Shown: positions 30,001-33,000, counted from the first letter of the stretch. The stretch is DNA of 64,000 bases from Candidatus Spyradenecus sp. (GCA_045535075.1 JAZSKX010000002.1:1-64000), one strand, 5' to 3'. Made by a program: the numbers.

Positions 30001-33000
30001 TACTTCATTCTCTCCCGCGTTTTTTGGCAAACAAAAAGCGCCGAAACCCTTTCCCGCAAACACGTGCAATAAAACCGCTTGACACTTTCCCGAAACTAAG
30101 CCTTTATAAAGCACTTTCAATTTCAAATACATCAACCTAAAGAAACACAATGCTTCGAATCAGATTGCAACGTCATGGGGCCGCACACGCTCCGAACTAT
30201 CGCCTCGTTGTTTGCGAGAGCACGGCTCGTCGCGACGGTCGCTTTGTCGAAATCGTCGGTTCCTACAATCCTGCCGCTAAAGGCAAAACCGAACCGCTGA
30301 AAGTCGCTCTCGATCGCGTCGACTACTGGATGAAATGCGGTGCGCAACCCTCCGAAACGGTTGCTTCGCTCATCAAGCGCGCCCGTAAGGAAGCCGCCGC
30401 CGCTCCGGCTGCGTAATTGCGGGAACTTCCGACAAGTTTATTATTTACTAAAAGAAGAAAGGCGTTCCCGTGGCAAACGAGAGCGCCTTTTTCGTCTCCG
30501 TAGCATGCAGATAGATATTCTCACTCTTTTTCCCAAGATGGTTACCGGATTTTTCTCCGAAAGCATCTTAGGGCGTGCGATTGAGAAAAAAATCCTTTCC
30601 GTAAACACGCACGACATCCGCGATTGGACCGCCGACAAACATCGGCGGGTTGACGATCGCCCGTTCGGCGGCGGTGCCGGCATGCTAATGTCCCCGCAAC
30701 CCGTTTTCGATGCCATCGAAGCCGTTCGCGGGAACGATTCCGTCGACGAAATCATCTACCTTTGTCCGGACGGAGAACCGCTAACCAACAACCTCGCGCG
30801 CGAACTTTCTCAAAAAAAGCGTATCATTCTCCTCAGCGGGCATTACGAAGGGATCGACCAACGTATCCGCGACACACTGATTACGCGGGAAATTTCTATC
30901 GGAGATTATGTGCTGACAAACGGCACAATCGCCGCCGCCGTCTTGGTCGATTGCCTCGCCCGGCAAATTCCCGGAGTGCTCGGCGAAGAAAATTCGTTGA
31001 CTAGCGACAGTTTTAATGCCAATCTTCTATCCTTTCCTCAGTATACGCGTCCCGAGGTTTTCCGCGGTATGCCTGTTCCGCCGGTTCTTCTTTCCGGAAA
31101 TCACGCAGAAATCAAGCGTTGGCGGCATGAGCAACAGCTGAAAAAAACGCGGGAACGCAGACCTGATTTACTTTCAAAAGACATATAACAATGAGCCAGC
31201 AAATCCTTAATTCGCTTACACAAGCCCAGCTCAAAGCTGACCGCAACAACTTCCGCGTCGGCGACGGCGTTCGCGTCCACACCAAGGTTCGCGAAGGAGA
31301 CAAAGAACGCATCCAGATCTTCTCCGGAATCGTCATCAGCCACAAAGGCACGGGCATTCAAGAAGCCTTCACGGTTCGCCGCATCGCCTCGGGCGAAGGC
31401 GTTGAACGCGTGTTTCCGGTTCACAGCCCGAACGTCGTCAAAATCGAAGTCGATCGCAAATCGGTTCCGATGAAAGCGCGCCTCCACTACCTGCGCAAGC
31501 GCTTGGGCAAAGCGGCAACGAAGGTCAAAGAACGCGCATTCTCGACGGAAGCCTAATTCGCTTCGACCTTTTCAAAAGGCACATTCCCTGCGGAGTGTGC
31601 CTTTTTTGTTTCCCGAACGGAACCCTTAGCCTGCAAGATCTCTGCCTTCGACGTGCGTCGTTCCGTCGTGGAACTGCAAGACGACCCTTTGCCCGAGAGA
31701 AATTTTTCCCGCAGAATCCAAAAGCGTTCCCGTCGCCTCGTCTTTGGCAACAGCAAAACCGCGCTTCAGGGTCGCATCCAATCCGGAGGCGGATAAGCGG
31801 GCCGCCAATTGATTCAAATGCAAGCGGGCAAGTTCCGTTCGTGTCGCAGGGAATTGCTTCTCCAAGCGGAAATTCAGCTTATCAAGTCGTTCCCGCAGAG
31901 AAGCGACTGCGGGAGCAAGCGCGCCGGAAAGTCGATGCGAAAGCAAATTCGCACGCGTTCGCATCAAAGCGAAAAGCGCGTGCGGCGAGCGGCTTTCGAG
32001 GCGGGCTTCAAGCAAATCCAAACGCTGCGCGAAATTTTCCAGCATCGCGGTCGCACAAGCCTCCAACGACATTTCGGCAGAGTCAACCCGTTCAACGATT
32101 TCCATGCGTCCGCTCGAAATATACTCGGCGGCGGCAGAAGGCGTTTCGGCACGCAAGTCCGATGCGAAATCCGAAAGCGTAAAATCAATTTCATGCCCGA
32201 CAGCGGAAATCACGGGAACGCGCGACGCACGCACGGCTCGCGCCACCGCCTCTTCATTAAAGCACCACAAATCTTCGAGCGAACCGCCGCCGCGACCGAC
32301 AACCAACACGTCTAAATCGCGTAGCGTTCCCGCAAGGCGAATGCCGCGCACGATTTCCTCCGCCGCGCCGACGCCCTGCACTTTCGCCGGAATCACGTAA
32401 AGCATTCCCACCCAATCCCGGCGACGAAGAATGCTGATAAAATCCCGAATTGCCGCTCCCGTCGGAGACGTTACAAAGGCAATTTTTTTGGCGAATCGGG
32501 GAATCGGGCGTTTTTTCTCTTTTGCAAAAAGGCCTTCCGCTTCCAGCTTGCGCAACAATTTTTCATATTCCGCCTGAAGCCGCCCAACGCCTTCTTCCTG
32601 CAAGATGCGGACAACAATCTGATAGTTCCCGCGCGGCGCATAAACGTCAACATCTCCGAAAACGACGATTTGCATCCCTTCCCGCAACCGAACATTCGAG
32701 CGCGCAAGCATTCCGCGAAACGCGACGGCGGAAATTTGGCTTCCCGCGTCTTTCAATGTAAAATACGCATGCCCGCTACTTTGAATGCGCAAATTAGAAA
32801 TTTCTCCGCGTAGCCAAACACCGGAAAACGCCGATTCCAGGGTTGATTTTATTTGCGCGGTCAGCTCGGAAACCGTCAACGGTTCTTCCCGTAGCTCGCG
32901 AAGCTCCGAATGTTCTCCGGAAAACATTTTCGTTCCCGCGTCAATTCGCTTCCCACGGGCTCAAAAAGCGCGTTCGGAAATCGTAAACATTATCAAAATC

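Follow-up and report, generated by a model that had tools for sequence, protein, structure and literature searches.

A small-genome Opitutales bacterium without recognisable Era, RsgA, RimM, RimP or RNase III, and the 30S assembly factors that it retains

Late maturation of the 30S ribosomal subunit in Escherichia coli involves Era, RsgA, RbfA, RimM, RimP, KsgA and YbeY, together with cleavage of the rRNA precursor by RNase III. RbfA is released by RsgA or by IF3, overproduction of KsgA suppresses an era mutant, LepA has a role in the 30S subunit, and rnc mutants still mature their 16S rRNA by way of RNase E/G. Era acts upstream of RbfA and RsgA, and defects of rbfA are suppressed by Era variants, according to the sections consulted of a 2023 review (PMC10582724). 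The Era-less bacteria named in those sections are Chlamydia, Dependentiae and most of the Candidate Phyla Radiation (CPR), and the loss is described there as restricted to extremely genome-reduced groups with simplified ribosomes (PMC10582724). A second source, in the excerpt consulted, places Era in almost all bacteria (PMC9032327). A third, likewise represented by part of its text, reports that the CPR (Patescibacteria) almost entirely lack rimM and rimP and seldom carry era or rsgA, and gives frequencies in non-CPR genomes of 97.3% for era, 94.9% for rimM, 92.3% for rimP, 83.9% for rsgA and 97.9% for rnc (PMC12641178). The data set of that study includes 45 Verrucomicrobiota, yet the phylum is mentioned 0 times in the main text (PMC12641178). 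A literature search for Era loss in Verrucomicrobia or Akkermansia returned no report; it left subscription journals largely uncovered, and an earlier mention is possible.

The gut-type verrucomicrobial genome described here (Candidatus Spyradenecus sp., GCA_045535075.1) comprises 1.95 Mb in 18 contigs with about 52% G+C, and its completeness is 99.45%. The closest public match to its TrmD, at 81% identity, comes from a metagenome-assembled genome (MAG) labelled 'Verrucomicrobia bacterium', and many records under the labels Opitutales or Opitutae share 63-67% identity with it; the organism is therefore placed among the small-genome Opitutales of the phylum Verrucomicrobiota. The window, a stretch of 64,000 nucleotides at the start of one contig, contains the following features.

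30150..30416, plus strand: rpsP, ribosomal protein S16 (Pfam Ribosomal_S16, 78.2 bits)
30417..30504, no strand: spacer of 88 nt between rpsP and trmD, empty; the usual slot of rimM (in Firmicutes also of the KH gene ylqC)
30505..31188, plus strand: trmD, tRNA m1G37 methyltransferase (Pfam tRNA_m1G_MT, 219.8 bits)
31191..31556, plus strand: rplS, ribosomal protein L19 (Pfam Ribosomal_L19, 135.8 bits)
32941-33321: Minf_1886-family gene (TIGR04138, 139 bits)

The start of trmD is taken as the ATG at 30505; its open reading frame (ORF) itself begins with a GTG at 30340. The survey's finding from which this analysis proceeds was that rpsP is followed directly by trmD and rplS, with no rimM, and that RimM, RimP, Era and RNase III are missing from the whole genome. 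The gene order is confirmed by the ORF map and by the Pfam scores of all three genes. At just 88 nt the spacer is too small for rimM, and no fitting ORF lies within 30417..30504. Among 55 Opitutales-type loci, in which the distance between the two genes is mostly 80-200 nt, both genes were found in 52, with rpsP either near trmD (mostly at 80-200 nt) or after rplS. In two chlamydial loci the genes are 97 and 108 nt apart, likewise with no rimM between them; in Firmicutes loci the gaps are 690-1147 nt and contain the KH and RimM genes. Wider gaps in some relatives were considered as possible rimM sites, and their contents proved to be S16 tails or unrelated genes. Long acidic S16 tails occur in some Puniceicoccaceae-labelled relatives.

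Beyond the window, the features listed here bear on the remaining factors.

C5:370313-371551: nusA, with an M60-like peptidase gene upstream and infB downstream
C8:80664-80969: RbfA (73.5 bits)
C1:204469-204828: YbeY (79.6 bits)
C5:37365-38033: KsgA, a KsgA/RsmA dimethylase (RrnaAD, 159.3 bits)
C11:101133-101942: RNase E/G (327 bits)
C16:278270-279835: RNase Y
C12:106783-107403: divergent RecO, 207 aa, within an ORF at C12:106783-107499 (identified by hhalign and AlphaFold2 fold match)

The absence of RimM and RimP is borne out by domain models and by synteny. For RimM, PF01782 scores at best 12.7 bits in this genome, within the ORF of S3, and a full-length HMM built from 16 Firmicutes RimM proteins reaches E 1.8 at best; the characteristic pairing of a RimM beta-barrel with a PRC barrel, encoded between rpsP and trmD, was not found. 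The N- and C-terminal domains of RimP (PF02576 and PF17384) gave zero matches in the genome, and no candidate rimP ORF lies upstream of nusA, either here or in any of five genomes examined for such an ORF. Both absences extend well beyond the organism, as neither RimM nor RimP_N was matched in any of 101 genomes of the phylum (0/101 each), even at E 0.01.

Era was sought in 27,257 stop-to-stop ORFs of at least 40 aa that cover the whole genome, and its absence, too, is upheld by the curated model, by HMMs of our own and by the state of its usual slots. The top score of TIGR00436 is 66.3 bits against a cut-off of 116.25, and the ORF that attains it is Der (438 bits on TIGR03594). Two HMMs of our own, one of 12 Era proteins from other classes and one, run unfiltered, of six Era proteins from the same class, matched only the GTPase domains of other proteins (Der, MnmE, Obg, FeoB, YchF and IF2), and with neither of them was the KH part matched. 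An HMM of the KH domain alone, derived from same-class Era and run over all ORFs with filters off, gave a best E of 5. NCBIfam places each GTPase match of the Era model in another family (Der, at 438 bits, MnmE, ObgE, FeoB, YchF, BipA and LepA) and assigns the weak P-loop matches to ABC proteins and UvrA. A search with MMR_HSR1 revealed no additional GTPase in the genome, EngB and HflX likewise being unseen; KH_2 exceeds its cut-off in S3 only, and a C-terminal type-II KH domain joined to a GTPase was not found. The usual contexts of era, after ybeY or within rnc-era-recO, are also missing from the genome. The ybeY gene follows a PgpH-like 7TM-HD gene, which is also the arrangement in Bacillus, and is followed by an M16 peptidase gene rather than by era; there is no rnc, and the RecO-like gene lies on contig C12. 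The surroundings of clpX were considered as a deletion scar, era being adjacent to clpX in two Limisphaera-like loci, but clpX in this genome is flanked by unrelated genes.

The distribution of Era among relatives was determined, like that of the other factors, in samples of each group with a loose first filter, counting for Era only full-length matches (model positions about 1-270, E < 1e-45) and one split match of 195.9 bits, and excluding rows that arise from the two GTPase domains of Der. By this measure none of 37 genomes of the order has Era, nor does any of 29 from the remainder of the class; in other classes 70 of 134 have it, and the 64 Era-less genomes there are spread over ten families. 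The survey had extended the absence of Era to the entire class, and this does not hold: a larger class sample yielded full-length Era, at 181-224 bits, in 44 of 400 genomes. These fall in families f50 (6/6) and f56 (26/28), with 12 more across f64, f69, f70, f75, f81 and f90, and there are none in the families of the organism's own order (f1-f7, 0/70) or in f9 (0/66). Six of the same-class Era proteins, from f56, f64 and f81, form one clade with support of 100/99 in a tree without an outgroup. One of the six is identical to a protein of Limisphaera sp. VF-2 named GTPase Era, and Era is therefore retained by a Limisphaera-like group within the class.

No Era match at E 1e-25 or better was obtained in Cerasicoccus frondis NBRC 105381 (5.8 Mb), Cerasicoccus arenae KCTC 12870 (4.1 Mb), Opitutaceae bacterium MBA3-11 (5.2 Mb), a Coraliomargarita MAG, MAG SIG76, a Chthoniobacteraceae MAG (6.5 Mb) or two chlamydial MAGs. 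Among the five Era-less verrucomicrobial and chlamydial MAGs, four gave no match at all and one, a Chlamydiales MAG, gave a Der-like match only. Era was recovered from an Omnitrophota MAG and two Firmicutes genomes, at 262-316 bits. The absence is thus a property of the clade rather than of one assembly, as the counts for the order (0/70 and 0/37) and the named isolates show. Nor does it go with extreme genome reduction, there being Era-less genomes of 4.1-6.5 Mb, cultured strains among them, and of up to 6.1 Mb within the order.

RNase III shows a far more restricted pattern of loss. Its absence from this genome, also part of the survey's finding, is supported both by PF14622, with a best score of 14.1 bits in an ORF of 65 aa, and by tblastn, in which three RNase III sequences from the same family served as queries and the best E was 0.016. 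All of 100 other genomes sampled from the phylum have the enzyme. Within the organism's own family, in counts made with no completeness filter, it was found in 0 of 10 genomes of its genus (g1), 0 of 9 of g106, 1 of 10 of g2, 9 of 10 of g105 and 1 of 1 of g104. The sole match in g2 is on a 2.2-kb contig with rnc-era-recO, which we read as foreign and left uncounted. A remnant of rnc was sought at the corresponding site, as rnc in g105 follows a TonB-like gene; the TonB-like gene of this genome is followed by glycosyltransferase genes, and no remnant remains.

RsgA (YjeQ), which was not on the survey's list, is absent from the genome as well. The best score of PF03193, 23.4 bits, falls short of the cut-off of 30, and the matches are confined to P-loop stretches in proteins of ABC type. 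RsgA was found in 35 of 100 other genomes, in 7 of 19 within the order and in 9 of 9 of f9. We considered RsgA as a complement of Era, and its pattern of distribution does not match that role.

RecO, the usual operon partner of rnc and era, had also been recorded as missing, and here the result was different. In 13 genomes of the order TIGR00613 gave just two weak matches, each within an ORF of some 237 aa, and these two ORFs in turn match an ORF on the minus strand of contig C12 of this genome at E 7e-27 and 7e-29. The C12 protein scores 13.9 bits on Pfam RecO_N (cut-off 27) and matches nothing in NCBIfam at 1e-5; Pfam domains are likewise absent from its 28 database relatives, of which the only two with a name are called hypothetical. 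In profile-profile alignment with hhalign, a profile of 21 relatives aligned with four RecO proteins of other classes at 97% probability and E 1.2e-10 over 128 columns. A sequence search of the PDB with the RecO-like profile gave a best E of 0.32, and a fold search was needed for the identity. The AlphaFold2 model of the protein (pLDDT 88.2, pTM 0.86) has RecO structures as its 11 best PDB matches, with TM scores of 0.58-0.75 on the model and E values of 7e-9 to 2e-5 over the whole length. Its predicted architecture is that of RecO, an N-terminal OB fold followed by a helical domain, and its predicted fold resembles the solved RecO of Deinococcus (1U5K/1W3S), E. coli (3Q8D), Thermus (8AB0) and Campylobacter (7YMO). 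The protein departs from curated RecO in scoring below the Pfam and NCBIfam cut-offs, in its length of 207 aa, in its position away from era and rnc and in the lack of a Cys4 zinc finger, the sequence being without a CxxC pair and therefore without the finger. The zinc finger is not found in every solved RecO. Because this divergent RecO is present, the idea that rnc-era-recO was lost as a whole unit fails. RecO also shows that absence by profile can be wrong in this lineage, a caution that weighs on the other absences reported here.

The factors that the survey listed as kept, RbfA, KsgA, YbeY, Der and Obg, are indeed encoded, with family domains over cut-off or NCBIfam assignments. NCBIfam further identifies LepA and BipA, and a search of the phylum found RbfA in all of 101 genomes. 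RNase J exceeded its cut-off neither in this genome nor in four genomes of the genus. The original observation is therefore mostly right: the four 30S-factor absences stand, the taxonomic rank given to the Era loss and the absence of RecO do not, and RsgA has to be added.

We consider it likely, on the strength of these sequence comparisons, that the absences are real gene losses of different depths, inherited within the lineage, and that a reduced complement of helpers builds the 30S subunit. The four losses do not amount to a single event, since RimM and RimP are gone throughout the phylum whereas RNase III is gone in only three genera of one family. RimM and RimP would have been lost at the root of Verrucomicrobiota or earlier, and Era in the ancestor or ancestors of Opitutales and of many other families; the loss of RsgA appears patchy, and that of RNase III would be recent, in a three-genus clade of small-genome Opitutales. 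Assembly of the 30S subunit would then be left with RbfA, the KsgA/RsmA dimethylase and the YbeY nuclease, with LepA, BipA, Obg and Der as the only remaining assembly-linked GTPases; of the endonucleases able to cleave the rRNA precursor, RNase E/G and RNase Y remain. RbfA and KsgA may stand in for Era as late checkpoints that guard the 3' minor domain, RbfA would be released without RsgA, and RNase E/G, YbeY and exonucleases would produce the ends of 16S rRNA; LepA may be a further helper of the 30S subunit. The roles given to RbfA, KsgA, YbeY, LepA and RNase E/G are those of their counterparts in model organisms and are presumed to carry over. The survey had proposed that 30S subunits are made here by another route; that proposal stands insofar as Era, RimM, RimP and RNase III are not recognisable, while the route is one that we infer and no replacement factor was found.

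Could such a replacement nevertheless exist? The work of Era, RsgA, RimM or RimP might fall to an unrecognised protein confined to Verrucomicrobiota or to the wider PVC group, or else to an extended rRNA or ribosomal protein, and we regard this non-orthologous replacement as unlikely. We give the same low credence to its more specific form, in which, across Opitutales and many other Verrucomicrobiota, this genome with just RbfA, KsgA and YbeY of the 30S-specific helpers included, the 16S 3' minor domain is held in place of Era by an unrecognised protein specific to the lineage or through an altered rRNA or ribosomal protein. Were it true, the 'addiction' to Era would have been broken by replacement and not by simplification of the ribosome. 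Era is critically required and hard to lose, as argued in the review sections cited above (PMC10582724), and general genome reduction does not explain its loss because Era-less genomes reach 4-6.5 Mb; both points speak for a substitute. Material for one can also be named, in lineage-restricted hypothetical genes such as the Minf_1886-family gene of the window and in the acidic S16 tails of the Puniceicoccaceae-labelled relatives. The search for a candidate was nonetheless unsuccessful. The Minf_1886-family gene, considered as a replacement linked to the rpsP operon, lies near trmD in 0 of 80 loci, the slots beside ybeY, nusA, rpsP and clpX are occupied by unrelated genes, and RsgA is not distributed in complement to Era.

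Two further explanations would deny the losses themselves. Era, RimM or RimP might be present in forms too divergent for profiles, and the C12 RecO, which was recognised by hhalign and fold in spite of its 13.9 bits on RecO_N and its silence in NCBIfam, is a precedent from the same genome. RecO had nevertheless left weak matches in 2 of 13 genomes of the order, whereas RimM and RimP left none in 101 genomes at E 0.01. Same-class Era is well conserved (181-224 bits), yet its KH domain went unmatched in this genome (E 5), all P-loop GTPases are assigned and the customary gene slots are empty, and we hold hidden orthologues to be improbable. The alternative that the genes reside in unassembled parts of the 18-contig genome, or were lost in binning, is close to refuted. 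The assembly does have gaps, in that infB is interrupted at a contig end and continues from C5 into C4, and the rRNA operon is unassembled, a search for 16S and 23S motifs having found no match. Such gaps do not explain the absences, because the same absences recur in relatives: RNase III is missing in all 10 genomes of the genus and Era in all 70 of the order, and three single-contig relatives repeat the pattern. The slots lie intact inside contigs, and completeness stands at 99.45%. Real losses of different depths thus remain the explanation that we favour.

If whole orders of Verrucomicrobiota with genomes of 2-6 Mb, some of them in culture, lack Era, and often RsgA, RimM and RimP, then Era-independent assembly of the 30S subunit can be studied in bacteria that can be grown. 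The lost genes double as phylogenetic and completeness markers, and lineage-wide gaps of this kind skew estimates of genome quality.

Measured against the late 30S set of E. coli, the genome is without five of eight factors; the three that it has, RbfA, KsgA and YbeY, match their domain models normally. The E. coli order rpsP-rimM-trmD-rplS is reduced to rpsP-trmD-rplS and rimP-nusA-infB to nusA-infB, and the rnc-era-recO unit is absent. Era-less Chlamydia are alike, in that two chlamydial MAGs have neither Era nor a rimM between rpsP and trmD. As in the CPR, rimM, rimP, era and rsgA are all missing, but the CPR, in the portion of that study consulted, often also lose rbfA, der or obgE, (PMC12641178), whereas here RbfA is retained across the phylum (101 of 101 genomes) and this genome keeps Der and Obg. 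Compared with the Era-less groups named in the consulted sections of the 2023 review, Era loss in Verrucomicrobiota is neither phylum-wide nor class-wide, and it occurs in genomes of 4.1-6.5 Mb, including those of cultured strains, that are not reduced (PMC10582724). The Opitutales are thus another lineage of a known kind, the Era-less bacteria, set apart by unreduced genomes and by the availability of some strains in culture.

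Besides the missing Era and RsgA, an MMR_HSR1 search of the whole genome revealed no GTPase of the EngB/YsxC, HflX, RbgA or YqeH type; the assembly-linked GTPases seen were Obg, Der, LepA, BipA and YchF. The infB gene is split by a contig break within its proline-rich N-terminal region (C5:371596-372145 and C4:3-2000). It is followed downstream not by rbfA, which lies after parB on contig C8, but by a gene for a MiaB/RimO-type radical-SAM methylthiotransferase (locus L131).

In the window, rpsP-trmD-rplS is accompanied by the following genes:

27932-28648, minus strand, gene for a secreted protein that has a FecR domain and weakly matches the LapA retention module, adjoining the phosphofructokinase gene
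28721-29989, minus strand, phosphofructokinase (Pfam PFK, 198 bits), divergent from rpsP
31626-32927, minus strand, xseA, adjoining the Minf_1886-family gene
32941-33321, minus strand, Minf_1886-family gene, 126 aa (TIGR04138, 139 bits)

The 126-aa protein has no Pfam match. Minf_1886 is a hypothetical protein family, limited by its name to Planctomycetes and Verrucomicrobia.

In one group of Opitutales-type loci (L014-L021) the order is trmD-rplS-rpsP, rpsP being located approximately 300-350 nt downstream of rplS rather than upstream of trmD. Some Puniceicoccaceae-labelled relatives (L055, L056, L062 and L064) possess an S16 with a long C-terminal tail, acidic or lysine-rich, encoded by ORFs of 170-340 aa; locus L062 also contains a masked stretch. 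Four loci (L012, L018, L021 and L066) are labelled Bacteroidaceae, Akkermansia muciniphila or Christensenella. Their TrmD proteins are 56-81% identical to that of the window, and because three of the four rank with the Opitutales-type loci, these labels look wrong.

In some families of other classes of the phylum, Era is found within open frames of 575-813 aa (genomes G050, G110, G059, G029 and G053), which may represent fusions with another domain. Within the family to which the window's genome belongs, one MAG (G229) includes a contig of 2248 nt (C75, locus L114) that bears rnc-era-recO in the proteobacterial order. This contig is probably a binning contaminant, and it raises the marker count of that MAG.
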